From contig CAWDEM010000004.1 in the NCBI GenBank assembly GCA_963801355.1, forward strand, positions 1,440,001 through 1,504,000: a stretch of 64,000 nucleotides of DNA, written 5' to 3'. Source of the DNA: Ignavibacteriota bacterium. Lineage in GTDB: Bacteria; Bacteroidota; Ignavibacteria; UBA10030; UBA6906. The translations under genes were made by a program, and so were the position numbers. Shown piece by piece: positions 39,720 to 54,839 of the stretch (positions are counted from its first letter, which is position 1; each line of letters starts with the position of its first letter). The notes beneath the pieces are model-generated. The model was not told where the DNA came from. It made no database searches and saw nothing but the letters and a program-made list of their open reading frames with translations.

Positions 39720-41102
39720 CTATCTTCTGTACCGCGAAATGAACTCCTCGACCTCCGGTATTCCTCCCTGGAAAATCAAGTAGCCGTTACTCGGCTCGCG
39801 CTCGGTGATCTCCCCGGCGATCGGGGTCATCATGATTTCCCGCACCTTCTGTACGTCATGAGTTTGTCCCAGTGCCCATCCCAGTTTGACGTAGGCAACC
39901 TCGGGCAGCATGTTCGCCCCGGGGACGACCCCTAATTCCATCATGTCGCGGCCGGTATCGTACACATACATCTGTACATACCCCCAGAGCGTTTGCACGG
40001 TCATATACACCGCAATCCCCTTCTCACGCGCGCGTTTCAACGACGGGTAGAGCGGCTTGTTGACATGTCCGAGGCCGGTGCCGGCGATAATGATGCCGCG
40101 GTAGTCATTATCGATCAGGGATTCGATGATATCCGGCTTCATGTTCGGATAGTAGTACACAATGCTGACCTTCTCTTCGAAGGCGGTGTTGACCACAACG
40201 TGCCGGTCTCTCCGGCGGCGTTTGTAGTCTCCCCGGAGAGGAGTAATCTTCTCGCGGCTGACCATTGCCAGGGGGATGTCACCGATGGTGCGAAATGTGG
40301 AACGATAACTCGAGTGCATTTTCCGGACCCGTGTACCACGGTGGAGAAGCCCGTAGTCGTCGGAGGTGGGTCCGAACATGCACACCATCGTTTCGGCGAT
40401 GTCGCTCTCGGCGGCGGTTTTCACGCTGTGCATCAGGTTCAGCGCGGCGTCCGACGACGGCCGGTCACTTGAACGTTGTGAGCCGACCATCACGATCGGC
40501 ACAGGCGACTCCTGCACCATGAAGGAGAGAATCGCCGCGGTGTGATGCATGGTGTCGGTACCGTGCCCGATGACGATGCCCTGAACTCCCTTTTCGATCT
40601 CCCGACCGATCGCCTGCGCTGTCCCGATCCATTGCTCGGGCCCCATGTTCTCGCTGAAAACTCCGTACAGCTTTTCGGTTTCGAGATTGCAGAGATCGGC
40701 GAGTTCGGGCACAGAGCCGTAGAGTTCTCCCGGTGAAAAGGCAGGGATGACCGCGCCCGTCCGATAATCCAGACGGCTCGCGATGGTCCCCCCCGTGCCA
40801 AGCAATTTCACGCGCGGCTTCTTGGGATCATACGGGAATTCCTTCTCGGGGATTTTGTAGTGGGCTTCCTTGCGCCCATGAACTGCGATGGCCTGCACGC
40901 TCCGTGCTGCGATACCGACATTGTACCCGCTCCGCAGTTTCAGCACGATGTGGTTCGCATCGGCAGTTTCCGAACGGGGGAGAACAATTCCCGTGAAAGA
41001 TCCGCGATCGGTCCGCACTTCTACGTCGCTCCAGACCTGGGCATTGTACTCCGTCAACGTGCTGAGGGCTTCACCGCGGTAGCCACGATAGTTGTCGTTC
41101 AT
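39720..41102 (-). CDS. gatD: Archaeal-type Glu-tRNA(Gln) amidotransferase subunit D
   Basis: GatD-specific N-terminal domain (GIVLPR...VLKLRSGYNVGI) plus an asparaginase-like domain with GTGGTIASRLDYRTGAV, HGTDTM, GSQRSSDRPSSDA, RGTRVRKMH, GTGLGHV, MLPEVAYVKLGWALG; ATGA-coupled to gatE. Confidence 0.93.
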   Translation of the reverse strand: MNDNYRGYRGEALSTLTEYNAQVWSDVEVRTDRGSFTGIVLPRSETADANHIVLKLRSGYNVGIAARSVQAIAVHGRKEAHYKIPEKEFPYDPKKPRVKLLGTGGTIASRLDYRTGAVIPAFSPGELYGSVPELADLCNLETEKLYGVFSENMGPEQWIGTAQAIGREIEKGVQGIVIGHGTDTMHHTAAILSFMVQESPVPIVMVGSQRSSDRPSSDAALNLMHSVKTAAESDIAETMVCMFGPTSDDYGLLHRGTRVRKMHSSYRSTFRTIGDIPLAMVSREKITPLRGDYKRRRRDRHVVVNTAFEEKVSIVYYYPNMKPDIIESLIDNDYRGIIIAGTGLGHVNKPLYPSLKRAREKGIAVYMTVQTLWGYVQMYVYDTGRDMMELGVVPGANMLPEVAYVKLGWALGQTHDVQKVREIMMTPIAGEITEREPSNGYLIFQGGIPEVEEFISRYRR

Positions 41103-43015
41103 CGCCCGGCCTCCGGTGTCATCAGTCCGAGGTACTCTGCCACCGCGCGGCCCGGGATGCGTCCCCGGACCTGCCCCATGACGAGACCCATGAGCCGCCG
41201 CTTCGCATTGGCCGGGGAATGCAGCCTGATGGCCTGAAGGTCGGCGCTGCAACGACCGGCGATGGACTGGAGTTCGTCATGCGAACAGGGAGGGGGGAGG
41301 GCGTGGCGCACAAACTGTTTTCCCTGTGCCACGGCAAGAAGAGAGGGAAGAATGCCCTCCCTGGCGAGGGATTTCTCGTGGATTGCCAGGAGTACTTCCT
41401 GCATGGTTTCTACGGTGAATCCCTCCCGGTTGCCGGTTTTTTTCTTGATCCTTTTTGGAAACTGCACAAGAGTCTCGGCGGCGATCGCCGGAGCGACATT
41501 CCATTCTTTCACTGCGCGCGCGAACAGGCCGGCAAACGGCGAAGTGCTGAGCGGAACCACAAGATCCTCCGGGACACCGATGACATGGTACCATCGCTCC
41601 CGTTCCCAGTAAGGCGGAGGAATGTCCACCCGGAGTCGTTCCAGCCGTTCCTTCATGATGCGGAGGGGGGGAAGGTCCGTGTCGGGGTACATCCGGTCGG
41701 GGCCGGGGAGAATCCTCTCGAAGCCGTTGGTTCCGTCGCGAAGCGCCTGGCGCGTTTCTGACGGAATGCCGATGGTCGCCTCGCGCGCCCGGAGAGCGAT
41801 CTCAGAGGCCCCCAGGGCGGCGTCCTGTGGACTCCCCCAGACGGCCACCAGCGTGTCATCGTCAGTGGCCCCCATGCTTTTGCGCAGCGTGCGCCACTCT
41901 GAGGATGGGAGTGTTTCGCTCGGGCTGTCGGAGTGGATGATATTCGGCAATGTCGTCAGGCAGGCCACGACCCTGACGCGGTCGGAGATCTCACGTGAGA
42001 AGAATGTGTCGGTCTGTGTTTGCCAGCGCAGCAGTCCCTGAAAGCCCCTCAGGAGAACGCCCTGCACCACGAGTCCGTCGGCCACCGCATTTCTGATCGG
42101 CTGATAGCGGGTCTTGCGAAGGAGCTTTGTCACCACTTCGGTCCTTGCGTCGAAGGAATCCCGGGTGATGCCGCGCCGGTGGAGCTCATCTCTGAGGCGC
42201 AGAAGATTTCGCTGGCGCATTGCTTCGTTGTAGGTGAGCAGCGGGATGTCGGGAATGCGGGGAACACCCTTGATCTCGATGCGGGTTCCCCCCGTGATGC
42301 TCACATTCACATCCTGCCGGGCGGCGCCCCCGCCCGTACGGACCTTTGATGTGCTGCGGACGAGTCTTCTCAGAATTTCGGCAACCTCCGCGACTTCTTG
42401 AGGCGTCCGCATGTCCGGTGCGGTGACGGTCTCGATGAGAGGCATCCCGAGTCGATCCGTGAGATAGGTTCTGCGGTGCCCCACGTCGCTCACCTCCCGG
42501 CATGCATCCTCCTCAAGGCCGAGCTGCACAATGGTGATAGTGCGGTCCCGGAATGGAATCGATCCGTTGACACCCACGATAGTGGTCCGCTGGAATCCGG
42601 TGGGGATGCTTCCGTCGAGATACTGTTTCCTGGCGATGTGGATCTCATCGACCATAGAGCAACCGTAGAGCATTCCGATGCCGAGCGCAATGTCCAGTGC
42701 ATCATCGTTCAGCTCGAACGGCGGGGTGTCGTCCATCTCGTAGGTGCATACCGTGTCCCGATGGATCTGGTAGATGATCTCTTTCTTTGTCTTGAACTCC
42801 ATGAGTGCTGTGCCGTCGTATTCACCCAGTTCGGACAGCGTGGGCCGCATGTGACGCAGGATCTCCGCGTCAAAGTGATCGCTGTAGCGTGCGGCGGGGC
42901 ACCGGCAAAAGAGCTTCTTCGACGTCAGCAGTTGTTGATGGATTTCGAGACCGGATTTGAATCCGAGAGCGGCATAGTCGTTCCCGGTCATTTCGGAGAA
43001 GGGTTTCGTGGGCAT
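41099..43015 (-). CDS. gatE: Archaeal-type Glu-tRNA(Gln) amidotransferase subunit E
   Basis: GLEIHQQL, KLFCRC, RPTLSELGEYD, DGS..GFQRT, LEEDA, DRLGMPLIE, RQDVNVSI, AspRS-like insertion domain (IIHSD), PSETR..L.DG...LPG..RMYPDTD, YqeY-like tail LMGLVMGQVRGR. At 638 aa it has GatE rather than GatB length. Confidence 0.93.
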   Translation of the reverse strand: MPTKPFSEMTGNDYAALGFKSGLEIHQQLLTSKKLFCRCPAARYSDHFDAEILRHMRPTLSELGEYDGTALMEFKTKKEIIYQIHRDTVCTYEMDDTPPFELNDDALDIALGIGMLYGCSMVDEIHIARKQYLDGSIPTGFQRTTIVGVNGSIPFRDRTITIVQLGLEEDACREVSDVGHRRTYLTDRLGMPLIETVTAPDMRTPQEVAEVAEILRRLVRSTSKVRTGGGAARQDVNVSITGGTRIEIKGVPRIPDIPLLTYNEAMRQRNLLRLRDELHRRGITRDSFDARTEVVTKLLRKTRYQPIRNAVADGLVVQGVLLRGFQGLLRWQTQTDTFFSREISDRVRVVACLTTLPNIIHSDSPSETLPSSEWRTLRKSMGATDDDTLVAVWGSPQDAALGASEIALRAREATIGIPSETRQALRDGTNGFERILPGPDRMYPDTDLPPLRIMKERLERLRVDIPPPYWERERWYHVIGVPEDLVVPLSTSPFAGLFARAVKEWNVAPAIAAETLVQFPKRIKKKTGNREGFTVETMQEVLLAIHEKSLAREGILPSLLAVAQGKQFVRHALPPPCSHDELQSIAGRCSADLQAIRLHSPANAKRRLMGLVMGQVRGRIPGRAVAEYLGLMTPEAGR

Positions 43016-43167
43016 TGGCTGGAGGTTCGGAGTCGTATTTTCCTTAATTTACGGAATCGGGGCGCGAATATCCATTGAGCACGCCTTGACTTTCTCTCCC
43101 GGTGCACGTTAATTGCTGCAGCATACGGCCGGAAGTTTGACCAACTACAAGCCGAGAGGACAAGGAA

Positions 43168-43599
43168 ATGACGACTGCTCGCAAACTCCTGGAGAGAAAA
43201 GGGTCGAAGGTGCTCACTATTGAGGCCGCTGCATCGGTCTTTGAGGCCCTGAAAGTCATGGCGGAGCACAACGTCGGTGCCCTGGTCGTGATGGATGCTA
43301 CCAGGCTGGTGGGTATTTTTTCCGAACGCGACTACGCCCGGAAGATCGTACTGAAGAACAAGTTCTCCCGGGATACAGCAGTCCGTGAAATCATGACCCA
43401 CGATCCCATCCTTGTGACGCCGGAATCCGAAGTCCGGGAATGCATGCGGCTCATGACCGATCATCAGGTGAGGCATCTTCCAGTCATAGACAAGGAAAAT
43501 CTGGTGGGCATCATCTCGATCGGCGACGTTGTCAAATGGATCATCGAGGATCAGGCCGACTCCATCCAGTTTCTGGAACGATATATCAAAGGGAGGTGA
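43168..43599 (+). CDS. CBS-domain pair protein
   Basis: MAEHNVGALVV, GIFSERDY, VREIMT, RHLPV, GIISIGDVVK. Confidence 0.93.
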   Translation: MTTARKLLERKGSKVLTIEAAASVFEALKVMAEHNVGALVVMDATRLVGIFSERDYARKIVLKNKFSRDTAVREIMTHDPILVTPESEVRECMRLMTDHQVRHLPVIDKENLVGIISIGDVVKWIIEDQADSIQFLERYIKGR

Positions 43600-43690
43600 C
43601 ACCGGGGGGAGAGTGCCCCTCTCCTCTGAACGGAACCCGCCGCGCCGATCCGCTGTTTATGATGTCAACAGATGAAAGGCTGTACGATAG

Positions 43691-44422
43691 ATGATCTTTT
43701 TGCTCGCGCTTCTGCTCCCACTCGGTTCAGTGGATGCCACCCCGGAGGTCTTTCCGGGGGACAGGGAGTTTGTCACGCGCGATTACGTGTCTGCGATTGC
43801 CGCGTACCAGACGCTTCTCGAAACCCGTCCCGATACTGCCGGCGTGTTCTGGCGGCTTGCCCGGGTGGAAGTGTGTCTGGGTGATGTCACCGAGGGTGCG
43901 GAGAGTGAAGCGCACTATCGCAAAGCGGAACAGCTGGCCCGCGGTGCAGTCAGACTCGATTCAATGAATGCGGATGCCCATACGTGGCTGGCGGTTGCGT
44001 TGGGGAGCATTGCCATGTTTGAGGGGAGCAAATCGAAGGTGCGGATGGCGCATGAGATCAAGTACCATCTCGACAGGGCAATCAGTCTCAACCCCAACGA
44101 CGACGTCGCTTACTCCGTGCTGGGCAGTTTCTACGCCGCGTTGGGAGACGTGAGCTGGCTGGAGCGCCAGCTGGCCAAAGTGTTTCTGGGCCGCCTCCCC
44201 GATGGGGGATATGAAGAAGCTGAAGTTGCGTTCCGCCGGGCCATCGCTCTGGCGCCGACGGTCATCAGGCACCACTATGCGTTCGGACTCCTTTTAAAGG
44301 CTCTGGACAGGGATGTGGAAGCCCGTAAGGAGTTTGAAAGCACGCTGTCTCTTCCCGTCGTTCTTGCCCGTGATGTCAAAGACCAGCTTGCCTCCCGCAG
44401 ATTTCTCTCTACCTTGCAATAA
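43691..44422 (+). CDS. Secreted TPR protein (RMD-like)
   Basis: Signal peptide; WRLARV, ADAHTWLAVALG, LDRAISLNPND, AFRRAIALAP helical repeats. Confidence 0.75.
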   Translation: MIFLLALLLPLGSVDATPEVFPGDREFVTRDYVSAIAAYQTLLETRPDTAGVFWRLARVEVCLGDVTEGAESEAHYRKAEQLARGAVRLDSMNADAHTWLAVALGSIAMFEGSKSKVRMAHEIKYHLDRAISLNPNDDVAYSVLGSFYAALGDVSWLERQLAKVFLGRLPDGGYEEAEVAFRRAIALAPTVIRHHYAFGLLLKALDRDVEARKEFESTLSLPVVLARDVKDQLASRRFLSTLQ

Positions 44423-44428
44423 CCCGTC

Positions 44429-47400
44429 TCACCAACGCAGCATGTGTACCACCTGAGCCAGAAGCACGAACTCCTGGTCCCCCGAGGATTTGTTGAGCAG
44501 GGTCGTCTGCAGACCTCGTTCGAGGGCCAGCGCTTTCTCCCGGTGTTTGTTGAACACCTCGAGTGACCACCTGGCGATGTCACTCGCGGGCTCTTTTCTT
44601 TTCCACTCTTCAAGCCTTGTCTGTGCCTCCCTCGTCTTCCCGGATGCGCGCAGTGCCAGTGCGCCGGCAAGTTTCGATGCACTTCCCGGCGTGCTTCGAT
44701 TGCGCGTGTACTTGCACACCTTCGAGAGGAGCACGGCAGAACCTTCTTGGTCCCCTTTCTGCTTCAGCAAGAAGGCTTCCAGGTAATCTTCGAGGCGCGT
44801 ATCGACGTCGTACGGCCTGCCCGCCCCGAGCCGCTCCGGCCACAAACGTGCCTGCCGCATCAGCGCGAGCGCTCCCTCGACGTCATTCTGAAGCGATTTC
44901 TGTGCAGCCAGGAGGATGCAGGCCTGGCGGTAAGCATCGTGCCCGTACCGGGCTCCCTCGAAGGGGAGGATTGTCAAGGTATCAAGAATTGCGTGACCGG
45001 CGCCATATTTCTCATTGAAGAGCAGTGTCCGCGCGAGGAGGAATTCCAGCACGTAGGAGTGCGGAAACCGTTCCACGGCGTGCTCGCAGACCCGCAAGGC
45101 TTCCACATACTGCCCCTGGGCGTTCAGGAATGTTGCCAGGGCGTTGTACGTACGCCATTCGCCGGGATCAACCTGCACCGCCTTTCGATAGTCCTGCAAC
45201 GCGCGTTGGGGTGCATCCGCCCAAAAACCTGCACGCGAAAGATAGAAGGGTCCGAAATCCGGCGTGTCTTCGCACGCGGCAAGCAACGTCCCGGCCTCCT
45301 CTTTTCTTCCCAGGCTCCACGCGAGGAGCGCGCGGTAGTACAGAATTTTCCAGTGATGTGCGCGCTGTTCTGCCCAGAGGAGAACCTCCCGGTCCTCCTG
45401 TCTGTGTGGAAAAACGAGTTGAGGGCTCGCAGCGAGCGCGCTGTCCAGCAGCTGTGCGCTCTTCTGGATCCGCCCGCTTCGTGATTCGAGGTAGGCACGC
45501 CAGAGAAGCACCATCGGGTGGTCAGGAGCCAGGGAAAGAATCTCCAGGGCATCCCCTGTCAGACCGAGCCTGGCGAAGTACGTGGCAAGTTCCAGAAAGG
45601 ATTCCTGGGGCAGTTCGTTGCGTATCATCCCGACAAAAGCATCGCGACTCTCCGGGGTCGGCGCCAGTCGGTATGCCACAAAACGCGCACAATGGTTCAA
45701 CGGATCAATGGCCAGAATGTCAGAGATGAATTCGCTCACGGCTGCGGAATCCCGGCGGTGTACGGCAGCAAGAGAACGCAGTTGCAGGGCCGGGATGTTG
45801 TCAGCACCGGCCCGGGAAGCGCGGAGTGCGAACTCCTCCGCATCATCCCATTGACCTTCGATGAATGCCATTTCGGCCAGCTGAAGATATGCGGCGGGAC
45901 GGTAGGCAGCCGAACGCGCGGCAATCCCGAACCCATCGCGGGCGTCGTACGGTTTCCCGAGGCTCCGCTGCGCCAGACCGTACAGGTAATTGCTCTCGGG
46001 ATCATAGGTGTCTACAGTGAGAGATCGCTTTGTGAAGGCCAGTGCCGAATCGTGATCCATCCTGCGAAGGTAAAGCTCGGCGGAACCCGAAAGCGCAGGC
46101 AGGAACTCCGGGTCTTTGTGCAAAGACGCCCGATATGACTCAAGCGCTCCCTTCGGATCGCGTTGGCGAACGCGCTCGCGGGCATCAACAGCCAAACCAT
46201 AAGCCGAATTCCAGTCAAAGGGTGTCTCCTCCTTCACCGGCCTCTCAAGAAGCCGCGCCGTATCGTCGCTGCTGCGGTAGTGAAGAAGGTTTCCGATGTG
46301 AATCTCAACATCGCCATCCGGCCTTCCGGCAACCACCGAATCCTGAACGACCTGTAGTGGCTGGAGCTCCACGGAACGCGAGAAGCATGGTTTGCCTTCG
46401 ATTGTCACCGTAATGACCTGCGTGGACTTTCCGGTAGGACAGAAGCCGAAGTGGAGCACACCGTTTGACGCGCGGACGTGCAGCACGCCGTCCGGCGTTG
46501 CCCGCGTGACGCCGCCGAGGTTTCTGAATGGGAACCATGTTTCATTGAAACGTTCGGAGGTCTGCGGGAGAAACGTCATATGCTTGAAAGGCGTCCTGCT
46601 GCTCTGCATCACCGCCTGATTGAAGTGGAGACCTGATTGGAGCTCGACATACTGGGTATTGCCCAGCGAGGAATCGGTGAGCAAACCCTTCCAGATTTCC
46701 CCTTCCCGTGAAAGTCCCCAGATCCATAGTTTCTTCCCTGGTTTGTCGGTATACCGGGACCAGTGGATGACGCCGAAATCATTCCAGCGTGCACCGAAAT
46801 AGTCGGTGAAGGCGCCCAGGACGTGGTACGATTTGTATGACCCGAACGCGTTGTTTTGATACCAGGAAAGATCCCTTCCCTGAGTGTCGACCGGCCATGG
46901 CGAAACCTCCCCGCCGTGGCTGATGTAGGTATTGCCCGGATAGATCAACTGGAGGGTCGAATCCGCGCCGGCCGCTGCGTTCATCCAATGATAGAGCGAG
47001 GTGCTCACCGCCGTGGGATTGTACCATAATGAACGTGTTTCCACCACGGCCCGGTCGGGCGGAAGCCGGATCTCCACGCGCCACTCCGTGCGCGAAGGAA
47101 GGTCAAGCGCTCCGACGATGCAGCTCACGCTTCCGTCGGCATTTGTGCGCGTGAGATAGTCCACGGGTGTGGCAGTCGCCGGAGTGTGTCCGATATCGCC
47201 GAAATTGAACTCGATCCCGCCGGATGTCCAGGGTCCGCGCATTGCGATTTCGCGGAACTTCATTACGCGGTTGTAATAAATGAACTCCCGTCCGGTGGAT
47301 TTTTCGAAGGCACCGAGAATCTTGCCCCCGATTTCCGGGGCGACAAGCACGCGGATGAACCGGTTCTCCAACGTGACAACCTTCCATGGACGATCCACCG

Positions 47401-47614
47401 GTGTCATGCTGTATCCCTGGTAACGGAAGTAGGGATAGATGTTGCTCATTCGTGCCACCGGATCCGGGTCGGAAAATGGATACGTGCGGAATGTCTGAAC
47501 GGTTTCAGAGATTGTCGCCCGCTGTGCCGGCGACTCGGCGCAGGGCCCCAGGAGCAGAAGCATTGCCGGGAGGATCAAGAAAAGACGAACATGTGATAGG
47601 GGCGACTGTTCCAT
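44429..47614 (-). CDS. DUF5107-type domain plus TPR repeat protein
   Basis: YPFSDPDP, LENRFIRV.V.PEIGGKI, GPWTSGGIEFNF, WMNAA, PGKKLWIWG, YVELQSG, then a long TPR region. Confidence 0.75.
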   Translation of the reverse strand: MEQSPLSHVRLFLILPAMLLLLGPCAESPAQRATISETVQTFRTYPFSDPDPVARMSNIYPYFRYQGYSMTPVDRPWKVVTLENRFIRVLVAPEIGGKILGAFEKSTGREFIYYNRVMKFREIAMRGPWTSGGIEFNFGDIGHTPATATPVDYLTRTNADGSVSCIVGALDLPSRTEWRVEIRLPPDRAVVETRSLWYNPTAVSTSLYHWMNAAAGADSTLQLIYPGNTYISHGGEVSPWPVDTQGRDLSWYQNNAFGSYKSYHVLGAFTDYFGARWNDFGVIHWSRYTDKPGKKLWIWGLSREGEIWKGLLTDSSLGNTQYVELQSGLHFNQAVMQSSRTPFKHMTFLPQTSERFNETWFPFRNLGGVTRATPDGVLHVRASNGVLHFGFCPTGKSTQVITVTIEGKPCFSRSVELQPLQVVQDSVVAGRPDGDVEIHIGNLLHYRSSDDTARLLERPVKEETPFDWNSAYGLAVDARERVRQRDPKGALESYRASLHKDPEFLPALSGSAELYLRRMDHDSALAFTKRSLTVDTYDPESNYLYGLAQRSLGKPYDARDGFGIAARSAAYRPAAYLQLAEMAFIEGQWDDAEEFALRASRAGADNIPALQLRSLAAVHRRDSAAVSEFISDILAIDPLNHCARFVAYRLAPTPESRDAFVGMIRNELPQESFLELATYFARLGLTGDALEILSLAPDHPMVLLWRAYLESRSGRIQKSAQLLDSALAASPQLVFPHRQEDREVLLWAEQRAHHWKILYYRALLAWSLGRKEEAGTLLAACEDTPDFGPFYLSRAGFWADAPQRALQDYRKAVQVDPGEWRTYNALATFLNAQGQYVEALRVCEHAVERFPHSYVLEFLLARTLLFNEKYGAGHAILDTLTILPFEGARYGHDAYRQACILLAAQKSLQNDVEGALALMRQARLWPERLGAGRPYDVDTRLEDYLEAFLLKQKGDQEGSAVLLSKVCKYTRNRSTPGSASKLAGALALRASGKTREAQTRLEEWKRKEPASDIARWSLEVFNKHREKALALERGLQTTLLNKSSGDQEFVLLAQVVHMLRW

Positions 47615-47853
47615 TGGGCACTTGCCTGTTGTTGGGGTAGCTACCGAGATCCACCCTCCAGCGGGTGCGATGTGTATCGTCAACGGTGGGGAATTGACTT
47701 ATCATACGCAATATTCCCGATTTGTGAAAGAAGCAACGGACCGGTGACCGGCCCTTGTTCTTGATTATCCCGTTCATAAGCTGTACTCTTTCGAGAGCAT
47801 CAAGCCCGTCCTTCTCTCGGTCCGAACCGCAATCAGACATCGGAGCCGCCCCA

Positions 47854-50463
47854 ATGAATCTTCGTTATCTCCTTGTTGCACTGCTCATCGTCACGCATTC
47901 CGGGGGCATCGCAGAATCACAGATCACGCCTGGAATCCTCCAGCGCTTTCAGACACTTCAACCCGGAGCTGATTTTCTCACGTTCCCCGAGGACCGGGAG
48001 CATCCCATCCGGCTTCGCGACGAGATTCCCGATGCATGGGTGTCGCGGACAGCAGGTGAAATGCGTCGATTTGCCGGATCAACGCGGCCCGGCGAGTACT
48101 TTGTATTCCAGATCGGCGTACTCGCGCACCGGAGAGATCTTGACCGGCTCACCGCGACATGGGTCCCCCTGCGGGGTCCTCAAGTCATTCCAGAATCCGC
48201 CATCACCTGTTTCAATACACAGGGGAGGGACCATCGCGGAAGACTGTTCAGCAAGGTGCTGCGGGTTACGCGTTACCGTATCCAACCGCTCTGGTTCGGT
48301 GTGCAGGTGCCGGCGAATGCACATGGGGTGTACCGGACATCAATTACACTCAGCGCGGCCGGCGTCACATCCCGGGCTGTAGAAGTTGTTCTTCACGTTT
48401 CAGGGGACCCCGTGGTGAACAACGGTTTCGACTCCTCCAGAACGCTTTCGCGTCTGGCATGGCTCAATACCGCCGTCGGAGCGGATGACCGGTGTTCAAA
48501 AGGATACGAGCCGATCCGCCGCGATGCACGTGGGCTCCACATTCAGGGTCGCACAGTCACGCTCGGTCCGGATGGGCTCCCGGCTGCGATCACATCGTTC
48601 TTTGAACCCTCCAATCAGTTCCTCGTCAACAAAGGGACACAATTGCTCCGCGACCGGTTCCGCTTCATCGTTGAGAAGCAAGATGGTTCTTTCATGCGGC
48701 TGGTTCCGGGAGAGCTTCGTTTTCGACAGGAGACCCCTTCTACCGTCGCATGGGAAATCAAGAGCAGCAGTCCCGAATGCGATCTGTTCTGCCATGGTCA
48801 GATGGAATTCGACGGCTTTCTGGACTACGCACTCACCGTGAAGCCCAGAAAGGCCATGGTGGTGCGTGACATCCGGCTCGAAATCCCGATGAACAGGGAA
48901 TGCACCGGCTACATGATGGGCCTGAACCACGAAGGCGGACTCCGTGCCGGCGGGTGGGAATGGCACTGGGACACCACGAAGAATCAGGATATGCTCTGGA
49001 TCGGGGACGTGAACGCCGGATTGCGCATCAAATGGAAAGCCGAGAACTATGTACGGCCACTCATCAATCTCTACTACGGGTGGGGTCCATTGCGTCTCCC
49101 GCCCTCCTGGGACAATGCAGGCAACGGTGGAGTCAGCATCGCCGATTCCGGCACCACGACGTATGTCAGAGCATATTCCGCGCCCCGCAGACTTTCGGCG
49201 GGAGAGGAGCTGCATTTCGACTTCGAACTCCTTGTGACGCCGTTCCGGACGATCGACACGGGAGTGCGCTGGGGCGACCGGTATTTTCACGGAGGCGGCA
49301 CCAATGCATTCCGCAAGATTGCCATGGCCGACAGTGTCGGAGCAAACATCATCAACATCCACCATGCCGAAGATCTCTATCCGTTCATCAATTACCCGTA
49401 TCTCGACGAAAACGTGCCGGCTCTTCGCCTGCTGGCCGACAGTGCCCATCGGGCACACAAACGGTTGAAACTGTACTATACCACGCGTGAACTGACAAAG
49501 AATCTTCCGGAGTTCTGGGCCTTCAACAGTCTCAACGGCGAGATCATCTATCCCGGGCCGGCGAGCGCCTGTACGACTATCATTAATCCGAAAGGACCGG
49601 ATGAGTGGCTGAAGAAGAACCTCAAGGAGAACTACATCCCCGCGTGGCTGAATTGGATCAAGGAGGGGCCTTTCCAGGGTGAACTGGACCTGGCCGTGAT
49701 CACTACTCCCGACGGCAGGTTGAACAATTTCTACATCGGTGGTCTGGACTGGATGCTGGATCACCTCGGCATCGATGGCGTCTATATCGATGATTCCGCA
49801 CTCGACCGCGAGACCGTGCGGCGGGCCCGAAAGCTGATTGACCGGTATCGCCCGGAAGGCCGGATTGACTTCCACAGCTGGAATCATTTCAACGACAAGG
49901 CCGGTTTTACCAATTGCCTGAACCTGTACATGGACCTTCTCCCGTACATCGATCTTGTCTGGATAGGTGAGATGCGGGATTACAATCGGTTGCCGGATCA
50001 CTGGCTGATCGAAGTCTCCGGCATCCCGTTCGGTCTGACCGGGCAAATGCTGAATGGCGGAGGGAATCCCTGGAGGGGAATGGTGTACGGCATAACAAAC
50101 CGGCCGGGATGGGCGGGAGATCCGTCACAGCTCTGGAAATTCTGGGACGCATACGGCATCGCATCAAAAAGCATGGTGGGGTACTGGGACAACGAGAACC
50201 CCGTGAAGACAGGGAATAGTCTCGTCAAGGCCACACTGTACAAGGGAGTCGGACAGTGCATTATTGCTGTCGCGGGGTGGGGGGACCAGGATCTGTCCAG
50301 TGCGCTCACACTTGACTGGAAAACGATCGGCCTTGATCCGGCCAGGTGCACGGTGAGCATTCCTGCCATTCCCGGTTTTCAGGAAGGCCGGCACAATGTG
50401 ACACTCGGAGATCTGACGATACCGGCGGGAAAGGGATATCTGATTGTACTGGAGAAGAATTGA
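47854..50463 (+). CDS. Secreted glycoside hydrolase-like protein (DUF6067/GH123-like)
   Basis: Signal peptide; [68 protein letters not shown]. Confidence 0.7.
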
Positions 50464-50488
50464 AAACGCCGTGCATTTTGTGTACTTT
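50460..50488 (+). promoter_or_regulatory. Putative sigma70 promoter of glnS
   Basis: TTGAAA-N17-TACTTT; SD GGAG before ATG 50522. Confidence 0.5.
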
Positions 50489-50521
50489 AAACAATTCGAT
50501 CACGCACACCTCCGGAGTATC

Positions 50522-52213
50522 ATGGCTGTCAACGAAAAAGCTGATTTCGTCCGCGAAATCGTCGCGGAGGACCTCCGCACGGGCAAGTATCAGGGTCGGG
50601 TGCACACGCGCTTCCCTCCCGAACCCAACGGCTATTTGCATATCGGCCACGCGAAGTCCATCAATCTCAACTATGGGATCGCGAAGGAGCATGCGGGGGG
50701 GATGTGCAACCTCCGCTTCGACGACACGAATCCGGAAAAAGAGGAACAGGAATATGTCGACTCCATCATCGAGGACGTGAAATGGATTGCGGGTGACATC
50801 GAGGAGAGGGTCTTCTACGCCTCGGACTACTTCGAACAGATGTATCAGTGGGCGGTTGACCTGGTCAAGAAGGGGAAGGCGTTCGTCTGCGATCTGACTG
50901 CGGACGAGATCCGCGAAACGCGCGGCACGCTCACGGAGCCCGGGAAAGAAAGTCCGTACCGCAACCGCACTGCGGACGAAAACCTGGACCTGTTCACCCG
51001 AATGCGGAACGGGGAATTTCCTGACGGTTCCCGCACGCTCCGGGCAAAGATTGACATGGCGTCGCCGAATATCAACCTTCGTGATCCGATCATGTACAGG
51101 ATCGTCCATGAGTCGCACCACCGCCAGGGGGATGCGTGGCCGATCTACCCCACCTATGATTGGGCGCACGGCCTTGAAGACTCGATCGAACGCATTACCC
51201 ACTCGATCTGCACGCTCGAGTTCGAAAACCACCGGCCTCTCTACGACTGGTATCTCGATGCCCTGGATGTCTACCACCCCCAGCAAATAGAGTTTGCGCG
51301 GTTGAACCTCAGCTATACGGTGTTGAGCAAACGGAGGCTGTTGCAGCTTGTCCAGGGGAAGTTCGTATCGGGATGGGACGACCCGCGCATGCCCACCATC
51401 GCCGGTTACAGGCGGCGGGGGTACACGGCGGAGTCTATCCGTACTTTTTGCGAGAAGATCGGCGTCTCCAAAAAGGACAGCATCATTGATGTTGCATTGC
51501 TGGAATGGAGTGTCCGTGAAGATTTGAACGCCCGTGCGCAGAGGGCGATGGCCGTGCTCAACCCGCTCAAGGTGATCATCACAAACTATCCTGCAGGCCG
51601 GACGGAAGAGCTTTCATCGCTCAACAATCCGGAGGATGAAGCAGCGGGCACGCGCACGGTGCCGTTCTCACGCGAGATCTATATCGAGCAGGAGGACTTC
51701 CGCGAGGTCCCGCCGCCAAAGTATCACAGACTCAGCCCCGGGAAAGAGGTGCGATTGCGGTCTGCATATATCATCAAGTGCGAAGAAGTCGTCAAGGACA
51801 ACGCGGGGAACGTCATCGAGCTCCACTGCACGTACGATCCTGAAACAAAGAGCGGGGCACCTTCGGCCAATCGCAAGGTGAAAGGGACACTCCACTGGGT
51901 TTCAGCCCCCCACGCCGCCGATGCCGAGGTGCGTCTGTACGACCGGCTGTTCGTCAAGCATGACCCCAATGAAGTTGCCGAATCGGAAAGCTTCCTGGTC
52001 AACCTCAATCCGGACTCGCTGAAGGTTCTGTCACGGTGCAAAGTCGAGCCAATGCTGGCGCATGCAGCGCCCGGGGCACGCTTCCAATTTGAACGGATGG
52101 GATATTTTTGTGTAGATGCGAAGGACTCCAGACCGGGTGCACCCGTGTTCAACAGGATCGTGACCCTGAAGGATACCTGGGCCCGGATCGAACAGAAAGG
52201 GAAAGCCGGTTGA
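50522..52213 (+). CDS. glnS: Glutamine--tRNA ligase (no YqeY tail)
   Basis: [54 protein letters not shown], GlnRS anticodon barrels ([32 protein letters not shown]). Confidence 0.96.
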
Positions 52214-53631
52214 ACCGACTCCGCATAGGACTCTTTGGTGTTGGCCTGGATACCTACTGGGGCCAGTTCTCGGGGTTGCGGGAGAGACTGGAAGGCTATC
52301 TCGGGCAGATCAACACCCGCTTGTGCGGTTCCGGGGCTGAAGTGATTTCGGCCGGCCTTGTGGACAGCGTGGACAAAGCTCAACGCGCTGCCGGGTTGTT
52401 TGCGACGGAAAATGTGGGCATCGTGTTTCTGTATGTCTCGACCTATGCCCTTTCGTCCACGATTCTGCCGGCGGTGCGTACCGCGCACGTGCCCGTCATC
52501 GTTCTGAACCTGCAGCCGGAAAGCCGCATCGACTACGCCCGGTTCAATGCTCTCGGTGACCGCGGGACGATGACCGGAGAATGGCTCGCATTCTGCCAGG
52601 CGTGCGCGATTCCCGAAGTTGCGAGTGTCTTCCATCGTGCGGGAATACCGTTCCATCAGATTACGGGAACACTTGCCGACGCCTCGGTATGGTCGGAGAT
52701 TGATGAGTGGGTGGATGCCGCGCGGGTGGCGGAGACGATGCGGACGACCCGTCTGGGCATCCTGGGGCACTACTACAACGGCATGCTCGATGTGTACTCG
52801 GATCCCACGATGCAAACGTCGGTGTTCGGGACGCATGTGGAGCATCTGGAGATCGACCTTCTGAAGAATCTCCGGGGGAAAGTCACGCCTGCCGAGCTGC
52901 ACACAAAGATCGGGGAGATCCATCAGGCATTTGCAGTCTCCCCTGAATGCGTTCCCGCGGAGATCGAGCGGGCTGCGCGAACGGCCTGTGCGTTGGACCG
53001 CCTGGTTGCCGAGAAGAGCCTGGGAGCCATTGCCTATTACTACGAAGGAAATCCGGGCAGCGAAGAAGAAGATATCATTACATCGATCATTGTCGGGAAC
53101 TCGCTTCTGACCGCACGGCATGTTCCCGTCGCGGGGGAGTGCGAGGTGAAGAATGCCCAGGCAATGAAGATCATGGACGCCTTTGGCGCGGGCGGGTCGT
53201 TCAGCGAGTTCTATGCGATGGATTTTGATGATGATGTCGTGCTCCTCGGCCACGACGGTCCGGGTCACATCGGGATTGCGGAAGGGAAGCCTATTCTCAA
53301 GCCGCTGGGCGTCTACCACGGAAAGCCCGGGCACGGGCTCTCCGTGGAAATGCGTGTGCGGAACGGCCCGGTAACGCTCCTCTCAGTCGTCCAAACCCAT
53401 GATGGCAAGCTGAGACTTCTGGCCGCCGAGGGTGTATCCGTGCCCGGTCCGATTCTCGAAATCGGAAACACAAACAGCCGTTATCGGTTCGCCCCCGGCG
53501 TGAAGGGTTTTATCGATGGGTGGAGCAGGGAAGGACCGGCCCACCATTGTGCCATCGGTTTGGGGCGTGTTGCGTCCCGACTCCGCAAACTCGCTGCAAT
53601 AACAGGGATGGATTTCGTTCAGGTATGCTAA
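52210..53631 (+). CDS. L-arabinose/L-fucose isomerase family protein
   Basis: [53 protein letters not shown]; TTG start overlaps the glnS stop (TTGA). Confidence 0.82.
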
Positions 53632-54839
53632 GGACCACGTGGGAATGGAAGTCCGGCGTGCCGCATGTCTTGAGGGGAACATGGGCCCTGGCGCTTGTGG
53701 TGGTTTCGTGTTGCAGTGTCGTCGGCGGGGACCTCGTCTCCTCGAAAAGTGAAATTGAGCGCTGGGAACGCCCGCGCATTCTCAGGTTGGCAGACAGCCT
53801 CCTGACAACCGAACCGCAGACAATCACGGCCATTCCTTGCGGGAGGAGCGCCGGCGGGAGGCACGATTATTTTTCAGAGGGGGACTACTGGTGGCCTGAT
53901 CCGGATCACCCGCAAGGTCCGTACATCCGGCGGGACGGCCTTACCAATCCGGAAAACTTCGTGGCCCATCGCAACGTGCTGCGCTCGATGAGCATCACCG
54001 TCCCTGCACTCGTTGCCGCGTTCAAGGTCACCGGTGACCGGCTGTATGCCGATCGCGCTATGGAGCATCTCATCGCCTGGTTCATCGATACCACCACGAT
54101 GATGAACCCCCACTTCACATATTCCCAGGCTATCAAAGGTATCTGTACCGGGCGGGCACCGGGGGTCATCGACGGCATTCACTTGGCTGAAGTCGCCCAA
54201 TCCATCAGGGCCCTGGAGCGGTCGGGCTATCTCAAGGGTGCCGATCTGGCTTCGCTGAAAAACTGGTTCCGGCAATTGCTGTGGTGGCTTACCACACATC
54301 CGTACGGTCTGGAAGAACGCGGCCTGGGAAACAACCACACGGTCTGTTGGACTGTCCAGGTCGGCGCATATGCGCTGATGTTGAATGACAAAGAGCGGTT
54401 GGATTCGTGCGTTGCCTTCTTCAAGAACGTACTGCTGCCCGATCAGATGGCGGGCGACGGGAGCTTTCCGAAGGAACTGCAACGGACCAAGCCGTATGGG
54501 TACAGCCTGTTCACCCTCGATGCGATGGCAATGGTCTGCCAGATTTGCCTGCTGGGCAGGGAGGACCTGTTCGCGTTTGCGTTGCCTGATGGACGGTCAT
54601 TCAAACGAGGTATGGAGTTCATGGTCCCCTTCATTCGGGACAGGAGCACCTGGCACAAACCTCCTGATGTCATGTACAACGACTACTGGCCTGTCAGGCA
54701 CCCGGCGCTGCTCCTTGCCGGGCTGGCATTTCATGAACACTCCTACATAGAGCTCTGGAAATCACTCGAGGCGGATCCGTCGGTGGAGGAAGTGGTGCGG
54801 AATTTTCCGTACCGTCAACCGGTGCTCTGGCTCGACTGA
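53625..54839 (+). CDS. Alginate-lyase-fold polysaccharide lyase (PF05426/PL38-like)
   Basis: HDYFSEGDYWWPDP, PYIRRDG.TNP, MNPH..YSQ, NNH catalytic motif, DGSFPKELQRTKPYGYSLF; start uncertain. Confidence 0.82.
   Translation: MLRTTWEWKSGVPHVLRGTWALALVVVSCCSVVGGDLVSSKSEIERWERPRILRLADSLLTTEPQTITAIPCGRSAGGRHDYFSEGDYWWPDPDHPQGPYIRRDGLTNPENFVAHRNVLRSMSITVPALVAAFKVTGDRLYADRAMEHLIAWFIDTTTMMNPHFTYSQAIKGICTGRAPGVIDGIHLAEVAQSIRALERSGYLKGADLASLKNWFRQLLWWLTTHPYGLEERGLGNNHTVCWTVQVGAYALMLNDKERLDSCVAFFKNVLLPDQMAGDGSFPKELQRTKPYGYSLFTLDAMAMVCQICLLGREDLFAFALPDGRSFKRGMEFMVPFIRDRSTWHKPPDVMYNDYWPVRHPALLLAGLAFHEHSYIELWKSLEADPSVEEVVRNFPYRQPVLWLD

Follow-up and report, generated by a model that had tools for sequence, protein, structure and literature searches.

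Bacterial GatDE beside GlnRS and AsnRS: an intact amidotransferase that may act on Asp-tRNA(Asn)

The two-subunit amidotransferase GatDE has been described as an enzyme of archaea. A 2008 review called it "an archaeal signature protein" (PMC2330236), a 2009 paper stated that it "occurs exclusively in archaea" (PMC2811023), and reviews present it as archaea-only, acting on Glu-tRNA(Gln) alone and shaped by co-evolution with archaeal tRNA(Gln) (PMC2330236, PMC2811023, PMC9499178). To reject Asp-tRNA(Asn), archaeal GatDE reads the first base pair together with D-loop positions 19-20 rather than the anticodon (PMC2330236), and archaea that hold both GatDE and the other amidotransferase, GatCAB, need the two because GlnRS and AsnRS are absent there (PMC2330236). 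A second relevant system is that of Bdellovibrio, in which AsnRS, GlnRS and GatCAB are present, AsnA and AsnB are lacking, the single AspRS is non-discriminating, and tRNA-dependent asparagine synthesis has been demonstrated (PMC4206432). Here we describe a gatE-gatD operon and a glutaminyl-tRNA synthetase gene, glnS, carried together on 64,000 nucleotides of DNA from an Ignavibacteriota bacterium. This whole stretch, termed the window, corresponds to C4:1440001-1504000 in an assembly of 4.8 Mb and eight contigs with a completeness rating of 100%. We tentatively read the enzyme, on sequence comparisons, as a working amidotransferase fitted to bacterial tRNAs with a U1-A72 first base pair, which may replace GatCAB and which probably amidates Asp-tRNA(Asn) and possibly Glu-tRNA(Gln) too. 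Literature searches, which did not cover Sheppard and Soll 2008, found no paper describing a bacterial GatDE; the NCBI and JGI pipelines already label proteins of the clade as GatE and GatD. The bacterial GatDE clade is annotated in the databases and ignored by the literature.

Both genes lie on the minus strand, gatE first (Table 1), and the ATG of gatD overlaps the gatE stop codon as ATGA, the arrangement of a coupled operon. GatE scores above the cut-offs of two NCBIfam equivalog models (518.2 bits against NF003107, cut-off 456; 438.5 bits against TIGR00134, cut-off 319.55), as does GatD with NF003217 (519.5 bits, cut-off 310); the GatD score with TIGR02153 is 515.2 bits. GatD comprises the Pfam domains GatD_N, Asparaginase and Asparaginase_C. 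Its asparaginase Thr, Thr-Asp and Lys motifs (GTGGTIAS, HGTDTM and VRKMH) align with the solved chains 1zq1_A and 2d6f_A, both of which it matches at about 400 bits. GatE aligns over its full length, up to residue 628, with 1zq1_C and 2d6f_C and is 34-36% identical to the solved chains. Its residues H26, E168 and E195 align with H15, E157 and E184 of Methanothermobacter thermautotrophicus GatE, which are Mg ligands (PMC2330236), and are invariant in an alignment of 60 sequences. The Pfam domain GatB_N extends over GatE residues 21-458 but accounts for only 277 profile positions, a sign of an inserted domain. Ratios of nonsynonymous to synonymous substitution rates (dN/dS), taken against seven to ten orthologues, are 0.08-0.13 for gatE and 0.02-0.04 for gatD; because dS exceeds 1, and is thus saturated, even within the genus, these ratios are approximate, but selection is still plainly purifying. 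Taken together, gatE and gatD are intact and translationally coupled, encode a catalytically complete enzyme and are held under strong purifying selection. A search of sequencing runs listed no RNA run that contains the operon.

The window operon is an ordinary member of a large, widespread bacterial GatDE clade. All five genomes of the genus carry it. Within the order, 11 of 41 genomes have gatD; nine of these have a GatE above the cut-off, and in the other two (G007 and G017) gatE is read in two frames. At the level of the class, sampled as 401 genomes at 90% completeness or more, 99 genomes have gatD; they span 55 of 190 genera, and prevalence depends strongly on family (for example 18 of 19 genomes in one family and 0 of 25 in another). 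Relatives are encoded by at least 572 stretches of species-representative genomes; the best 80 of these are labelled as Ignavibacteria, Kapabacteria, Chlorobi (including metagenome-assembled genomes, or MAGs, of Chloroherpeton), Bacteroidota, Aminicenantes and Acidobacteriota. Window GatE has at least 69% identity to more than 120 database clusters. The order gatE-gatD recurs in 88 of 90 loci, the proteins being 77-94% (GatD) and 57-92% (GatE) identical to those of the window.

The preliminary description of the window had envisaged that gatDE might be decaying, with dN/dS near 1. Ratios far below 1, and the retention of the Mg ligands and asparaginase motifs, speak against this. A gene pair that is dying or left over from a recent transfer, with no current role, would agree with the patchy distribution in the order and the class and with the two-frame gatE of G007 and G017, but it is a most improbable explanation given selection that is purifying while synonymous sites are saturated within the genus, an operon retained throughout that genus, GatD so similar over 88 loci in several phyla, and a GC content that is even over the region and the same in gatED as in its surroundings.

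HMMER searches over 50%-identity representatives gave 667 GatE matches at E <= 1e-30, and a FastTree phylogeny was built from 115 full-length rows. Window GatE falls in a clade of 39 rows (support 100), apart from 76 archaeal-type rows. Of ten rows looked up in each group, three of the archaeal-type group bear names (a Heimdallarchaeote, a Thorarchaeote and a Thermoprotei archaeon) and one of the 39-row clade has a taxon name, CSSED10-310 bacterium. The closest named archaeal GatE, that of a Heimdallarchaeote, is about 40% identical to window GatE and has LEEDSCRE, the signature of the bacterial-type group. In the GatE tree, Aminicenantes and Acidobacteriota are nested within the radiation of Ignavibacteria and Bacteroidota, and an Aminicenantes genome that shares only 39% identity with the window genome in GluRS shares 85% in GatD and 66% in GatE. 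The high identity of GatD and GatE relative to GluRS, together with the nesting, points to transfer between phyla plus extreme constraint on GatD.

It had been proposed from the window alone that GatDE coexists with an intact GlnRS and that its substrate is consequently an open question. Both enzymes are confirmed. The glnS product is full-length, as described: it scores 723.6 bits against TIGR00440 (cut-off 425.8), matches three Pfam class-Ic synthetase domains (tRNA-synt_1c, _C and _C2), the anticodon-binding barrels included, and has LHIGHAKS as its HIGH motif and VLSKRR as its KMSKS-type motif. The puzzle was framed on GlnRS alone, however, and proves to be wider, for the genome also encodes GatB (566.5 bits), GatA (619.6 bits), AsnRS (492.2 bits) and one bacterial GluRS (513 bits). 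On paper, GatDE is redundant with three other enzymes, not one. No gatC lies adjacent to gatA, the place where it was sought. A single AspRS, of bacterial type, is present; a second one of archaeal type, such as Thermus and Deinococcus have, was not found in the window genome. Neither was asnA, and the sole asnB-like gene (C8:243475-245173) is split by one frameshift near C8:243870, just before a conserved KVRLLLARDR stretch; it is either a pseudogene or the product of a long-read assembly indel. The asnB gene of congener G004 is split at another place and congener G003 has none, which would fit either genus-level decay or long-read indel errors.

The co-occurrence of gatDE with glnS, gatB, asnS, asnA and asnB, a tabulation suggested in the preliminary description, was determined in two sets of genomes. 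Set R is the sample of the order, in which 11 of 41 genomes have GatDE and 30 lack it; gatB was read there from GatB-type matches. Set S consists of 50 of the best 80 GatDE-bearing species genomes, 30 loci, mostly short, having been left out. Genome G053 of S is the same as G025 of R, so that the two sets hold 60 distinct GatDE genomes. The glnS gene is present in 34 of the 41 genomes of R, including 11 of 11 with GatDE, in 43 of 50 in S, and in 53 of the 60 GatDE genomes; a recent arrival of glnS among relatives that carry gatDE alone, as had also been envisaged, does not agree with these counts. Coexistence with GlnRS is the rule for the clade and not a peculiarity of the window, and the question of substrate stands. 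The asnS gene is present in 38 of 41 genomes of R and 50 of 50 of S. GatB is missing from 23 of the 60 GatDE genomes versus 3 of 30 GatDE-less relatives: in R it is absent from G001 and G025, which have GatDE, and from G008, G033 and G036, which do not, and in S it is found in 28 of 50 genomes (26 of them over the cut-off; one gene is split at an A-rich run, probably an assembly indel) and absent from 22.

When GlnRS and GatB are considered together, 22 genomes of S have both, 21 have GlnRS without GatB, six have GatB without GlnRS, and a single genome, G075, has neither. Thus 21 of the 22 GatB-less genomes have GlnRS, and six of the seven GlnRS-less GatDE genomes keep GatB. G075 is an uncertain case: it is a MAG from Aminicenantes, its completeness is unknown, and GlnRS is present in the other members of its clade. 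Practically no genome depends on GatDE alone for Gln-tRNA(Gln). GatCAB is readily lost where both GatDE and GlnRS are present, and is retained where GlnRS is absent. Such a pattern would be expected of a GatDE that can assume the role of GatCAB on Asp-tRNA(Asn) but cannot, or cannot adequately, assume its role on Glu-tRNA(Gln). Five of the six GlnRS-less genomes that keep GatB also have AsnRS and asnB, so GatCAB looks to be needed there for glutamine.

These counts bear on the more conventional possibility that GatDE acts on Glu-tRNA(Gln) alone and provides a parallel or clean-up route beside GlnRS, with a GluRS that is non-discriminating or leaky and with GatCAB serving asparagine as in archaea that hold both enzymes. 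We regard this as a strong rival, somewhat less likely than the reading that we favour. The window proteins belong to the family at equivalog level, and every characterised GatDE is reported to be a Glu-tRNA(Gln) amidotransferase (PMC2330236; PMC9499178), while archaea without AsnRS and GlnRS divide the work between GatDE and GatCAB in just this way (PMC2330236). G075, moreover, lacks both glnS and gatB. The retention of GatB in six of seven GlnRS-less genomes, five of them equipped with AsnRS and asnB, speaks against a GatDE dedicated to glutamine.

The GluRS of the window genome has Arg at the position of Arg358 of Thermus thermophilus, the discriminating state, which would also count against a glutamine-only role, but weakly. 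We dropped this residue as a criterion of GluRS discrimination, as Arg also occurs in the single GluRS of two GlnRS-less genomes of the Chloroherpeton type. A sole GluRS in a genome without GlnRS must be non-discriminating, so that Arg358 is uninformative in this lineage and there is room for a non-discriminating GluRS in the window genome. Two GlnRS-less GatDE genomes, G071 (L108/L113) and G041 (L112/L114), have two GluRS each, one with Arg at this position and the other with His or Glu, and recall the GluRS1/GluRS2 split of Helicobacter. For AspRS, we know of no reliable sequence signature of the non-discriminating form.

The distribution of asparagine synthesis genes argues for the reading that we favour, in which GatDE acts on Asp-tRNA(Asn). 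An asnB-type gene (counted in S at E <= 1e-90) is present in 24 of 41 genomes of R and 39 of 50 of S. In contrast to its presence in 9 of 30 GatDE-less genomes of R, asnA occurs in 0 of 11 GatDE genomes of R and 0 of 50 of S. Twelve genomes of R lack both asnA and asnB and all 12 have GatB, from which it appears that the lineage habitually makes asparagine on tRNA. Eleven genomes of S lack both genes, and seven of these lack GatB as well; because asnA, asnB and GatB are all missing, these seven scattered genomes would have no way of making asparagine unless GatDE does so, a circumstance that a glutamine-only GatDE leaves unexplained. Five of the seven, one of them a complete chromosome, were rechecked: no asnA, no gatA over the cut-off and no second AspRS was found in them, each has one bacterial AspRS, and GatDE is their only amidotransferase. 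Against the asnB model (cut-off 267) they give only GATase-domain matches of 93 bits or less, although the match in G043 extends over most of the model and can be read either way. On the GatE gene tree, which here stands in for a species tree, the seven genomes require seven separate changes, and the absence of GatB requires eleven. No second GluRS or archaeal-type AspRS was found in the GatB-less genomes. A switch to Asp-tRNA(Asn), one of several options raised at the outset, thereby gains comparative support from the loss patterns of gatB, asnA and asnB.

In the five GatB-less GatDE genomes examined for it (G042, G079, G044, G053 and G043; loci L101-L106), gltX and glnS are immediate neighbours.

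The tRNAs of the window genome were also compared with those recognized by archaeal GatDE. There are only two ordinary tRNA(Gln) genes, with anticodons UUG and CUG; both have U1-A72, not the archaeal A1-U72, together with G73 and a 7-nucleotide D-loop, and they are accompanied by a GlnRS. The tRNA(Asn), with anticodon GUU, likewise has U1-A72, G73 (read from the exons) and a 7-nucleotide D-loop that is near-identical to the D-loops of tRNA(Gln). By comparison, tRNA(Glu) has G1 and a 9-nucleotide D-loop, and tRNA(Asp) G1 and a 10-nucleotide D-loop. The archaeal rule excludes tRNA(Asn) by its first base pair; since tRNA(Gln) and tRNA(Asn) both have U1-A72 here, it cannot operate in this genome. 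A substrate switch would be possible because the two bacterial tRNAs share one identity set, U1-A72 plus the short D-loop. The short D-loop of tRNA(Gln), which GatDE reads and which distinguishes it from tRNA(Glu) with its extra bases, counts in favour of a glutamine-only enzyme; the U1-A72 pair counts against it. A special tRNA substrate was considered and set aside: there are just the two ordinary tRNA(Gln) genes, and "tRNA-Asn" matches at relaxed thresholds are not tRNAs.

The sole tRNA-Asn(GUU) gene (C8:1895347-1895731; locus L107:548-932, minus strand) contains a 312-nucleotide group I intron between anticodon positions 34 and 35, which matches Rfam RF00028 at 86.3 bits (gathering score 50). 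Because of the intron, default tRNA scans miss this gene, and the genome then looks devoid of tRNA-Asn. A literature search gave no clear report of such an intron in a tRNA-Asn of non-cyanobacterial bacteria.

Two elements of GatE have been linked to tRNA discrimination, a loop beside tRNA base pair 1 and a GXXAXGX motif in the tail (PMC2811023). The positively charged loop has the archaeal consensus KVKRGxGTIRQD, whereas window GatE reads KVRTGGGAARQD; that is, the GTIRQD of the archaeal group, with T and I each present in 80-90% or more of the 76 rows, is replaced by GAARQD. The A/A pair is the majority form in the 39 bacterial-type rows. The alteration of this loop is a further point against a strictly canonical substrate. 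The GXXAXGX motif, only moderately conserved in the archaeal sample (G about 50%, A about 60%), is not kept: the window stretch is PANAKRR, and the bacterial-type group shows no conservation of its G and A.

An AlphaFold model of GatE, made with the 60-sequence alignment, has a mean predicted local distance difference test (pLDDT) score of 92.3, and its helical tail is modelled confidently. Its best matches in the PDB are to GatE (1zq1_C and 2d6f, E 1.6e-50 and 1.7e-46), followed by GatB chains, with AspRS matching weakly, and it superposes on solved GatE with a template modelling (TM) score of 0.82-0.83 on the target. The model thus predicts that the cradle, the AspRS-like insertion and the helical and YqeY-like tail architecture are kept. 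No Pfam match to the YqeY-type tail domain PF02637 was found in window GatE, however, and among 120 close homologues identity to it falls from 86-87% in the catalytic cradle to 50% in the helical region and 38% in the tail. Because the helical and tail regions read the D-loop in archaeal GatE, their low conservation, like the undetected tail domain and the redundancy on paper in most genomes holding the enzyme, might be taken to indicate a new, non-canonical substrate. We consider this improbable. The entire architecture appears to be kept, the confidently modelled helical tail included; the catalytic pocket residues are invariant over the archaeal and bacterial groups; and 80 loci contain no conserved third gene that would point to another pathway, only gatE and gatD recurring. 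A non-tRNA substrate, which had also been put forward, finds no support in these data.

In the mechanism that we favour, with Asp-tRNA(Asn) as the principal substrate, GatD would free ammonia from glutamine or asparagine, and GatE would phosphorylate and then amidate an acidic aminoacyl-tRNA. The enzyme would be adapted to bacterial tRNA(Gln) and tRNA(Asn), both of which have U1-A72 and a short D-loop, and such an adaptation would enable it to stand in for GatCAB. Its main job would most likely be to amidate Asp-tRNA(Asn) formed by a non-discriminating AspRS. The outcome would be tRNA-dependent asparagine synthesis, together with the clearing of mischarged tRNA, and Glu-tRNA(Gln) may be a second substrate. 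In the window genome GatDE would act as a second amidotransferase beside GatCAB. For the bacterial clade as a whole, one can suggest, with some hesitation, an Asp-tRNA(Asn) or dual Asp/Glu amidotransferase that has repeatedly replaced GatCAB for asparagine in bacteria with GlnRS and AsnRS.

Several observations weigh against this interpretation. The window genome has GatA and GatB, so that nothing in it requires GatDE for either amide tRNA. An asnB-type gene is present in 15 of the 22 GatB-less GatDE genomes, where the need for asparagine cannot explain the retention of GatDE unless AspRS is non-discriminating. The seven genomes lacking asnA, asnB and GatB could simply import asparagine. G075, if it truly lacks glnS and gatB, would have a GatDE that serves as the Glu-tRNA(Gln) amidotransferase. 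Characterised archaeal GatDE is specific for Glu-tRNA(Gln) (PMC2330236), and the AspRS-like insertion domain of GatE, which has been modelled to clash with AspRS (PMC2330236), is kept in window GatE. Finally, the counts are of presence and absence in MAG-rich, phylogenetically non-independent samples, and the TIGR01536 matches counted as asnB may include paralogues other than AsnB.

The genes around the operon are listed in Table 1. The divergent spacer upstream of gatE is presumed, from its position, to be the gatED promoter region; no sigma-70 consensus sites were found on its minus strand. The glnS gene was thought to have its own promoter, but a sigma-70 consensus scan of 50200-50600, which may not suit the host phylum, found no sites. 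The 7.5 kb earlier reported between GatDE and GlnRS separates the two gene starts, at 43015 for gatE and 50522 for glnS. The region then delimited does include gatE and glnS, whereas gatD lies just to its left, the left end being the gatE stop codon. In congener G004, glnS is only 1.8 kb from gatE, with a homologue of the TPR gene between them, and the DUF5107 and GH123 genes are matched in just two of 90 gatE loci; the DUF5107/TPR and GH123 genes therefore look like an insertion in the window genome. Linkage of glnS to gatE was rejected as a functional clue, as their closeness is confined to the genus (G003 and G004). In G022, G025 and G020 the two genes are on different contigs or, in G020, more than 1 Mb apart on one contig. 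A 204-aa open reading frame (ORF) on the minus strand at 42988-43602, overlapping the gatE start, was likewise rejected. It has no family match and is the antisense shadow of the CBS-domain gene, whose presence on the opposite strand accounts for the apparent conservation of this ORF in relatives.

Table 1. Features of the window around gatED and glnS
Feature	Position	Strand	Remarks
gatD, asparaginase-type glutaminase subunit	39720-41102	-	460 aa; NF003217 and TIGR02153 matches
gatE, kinase/amidotransferase subunit of GatDE	41099-43015	-	638 aa; NF003107 and TIGR00134 matches
Divergent intergenic region between gatE and CBS-domain gene	43016-43167		152 bp; sequence read
CBS-domain pair protein	43168-43599	+	143 aa; Pfam CBS 98.3 bits
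TPR protein	43691-44422	+	Pfam
DUF5107/TPR protein	44429-47683	-	1084 aa; Pfam
GH123-type glycoside hydrolase	47755-50463	+	902 aa; Pfam
glnS, glutaminyl-tRNA synthetase	50522-52213	+	563 aa from ATG; TIGR00440 match

Downstream of glnS, at 52108-54839, are a 507-aa ORF with a weak match to the L-arabinose-isomerase C-terminal domain and an alginate lyase gene (251.3 bits); in its listed extent this ORF overlaps the end of glnS, and a later start is probable for it. A hybrid kinase of GAF-HisKA-HATPase-receiver type is found 3' of gatD in 14 of 80 loci (e.g. L043:11393-13144), and a sigma-54-dependent activator of the NtrC type in eight (e.g. L034:13133-14350). In one subclade these neighbours may indicate a regulatory link to nitrogen. 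Across the 1.16 Mb of the 90 loci there are six tRNA genes, and none is for Gln or Asn.

A strongly conserved bacterial clade of GatDE, present beside GlnRS and AsnRS in a quarter of the sampled class, contradicts the claim that the enzyme is confined to archaea and reopens the matter of its specificity. What is new is a co-occurrence analysis that gives the question of substrate a direction. Should the bacterial enzyme indeed make Asn-tRNA(Asn), it would be the first GatDE known on that substrate and a second, independent solution to tRNA-dependent asparagine synthesis, reached through a change of substrate in an enzyme described in textbooks as confined to archaea and specific for glutamine. 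The prediction of auxotrophy would then change for Ignavibacteria, relatives of the Chlorobi, and Aminicenantes, several of which would otherwise be called asparagine auxotrophs.

The window enzyme resembles archaeal GatDE, as known from M. thermautotrophicus (2D6F) and Pyrococcus abyssi (1ZQ1), in having two subunits of the same domain make-up, the H/E/E set of Mg ligands in GatE, the Thr nucleophile and Thr-Lys-Asp motifs in GatD, equivalog-level scores and the same fold. It differs from archaeal GatDE in that its host is a bacterium with GlnRS, AsnRS and GatCAB and a tRNA(Gln) bearing U1-A72 instead of A1-U72, and in that its GatE belongs to the separate 39-row clade, in which the base-pair-1 loop and the tail motif are altered clade-wide. 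No Asp-tRNA(Asn) activity is reported for any GatDE in the reviews consulted (PMC2330236, PMC2811023, PMC9499178). Archaea with both GatDE and GatCAB offer a parallel, as the window genome, most GatDE-bearing relatives and, judged by GatB, 28 of the 50 genomes of S (22 of them with GlnRS) also hold both; unlike those archaea, the window genome has GlnRS and AsnRS. In this last respect it is closer to Bdellovibrio bacteriovorus, Thermus thermophilus and Deinococcus radiodurans, where GatCAB is found beside AsnRS and GlnRS and the amidotransferase is, as here, seemingly redundant with the synthetases. The likeness extends to the lack of AsnA and AsnB in some GatDE genomes and to a tRNA(Asn) with U1-A72. 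The enzyme in those three bacteria is GatCAB, whereas here it is GatDE. Thermus and Deinococcus, moreover, have an archaeal-type second AspRS for which there is no counterpart here; Bdellovibrio, like the window genome, has a single AspRS of bacterial type.

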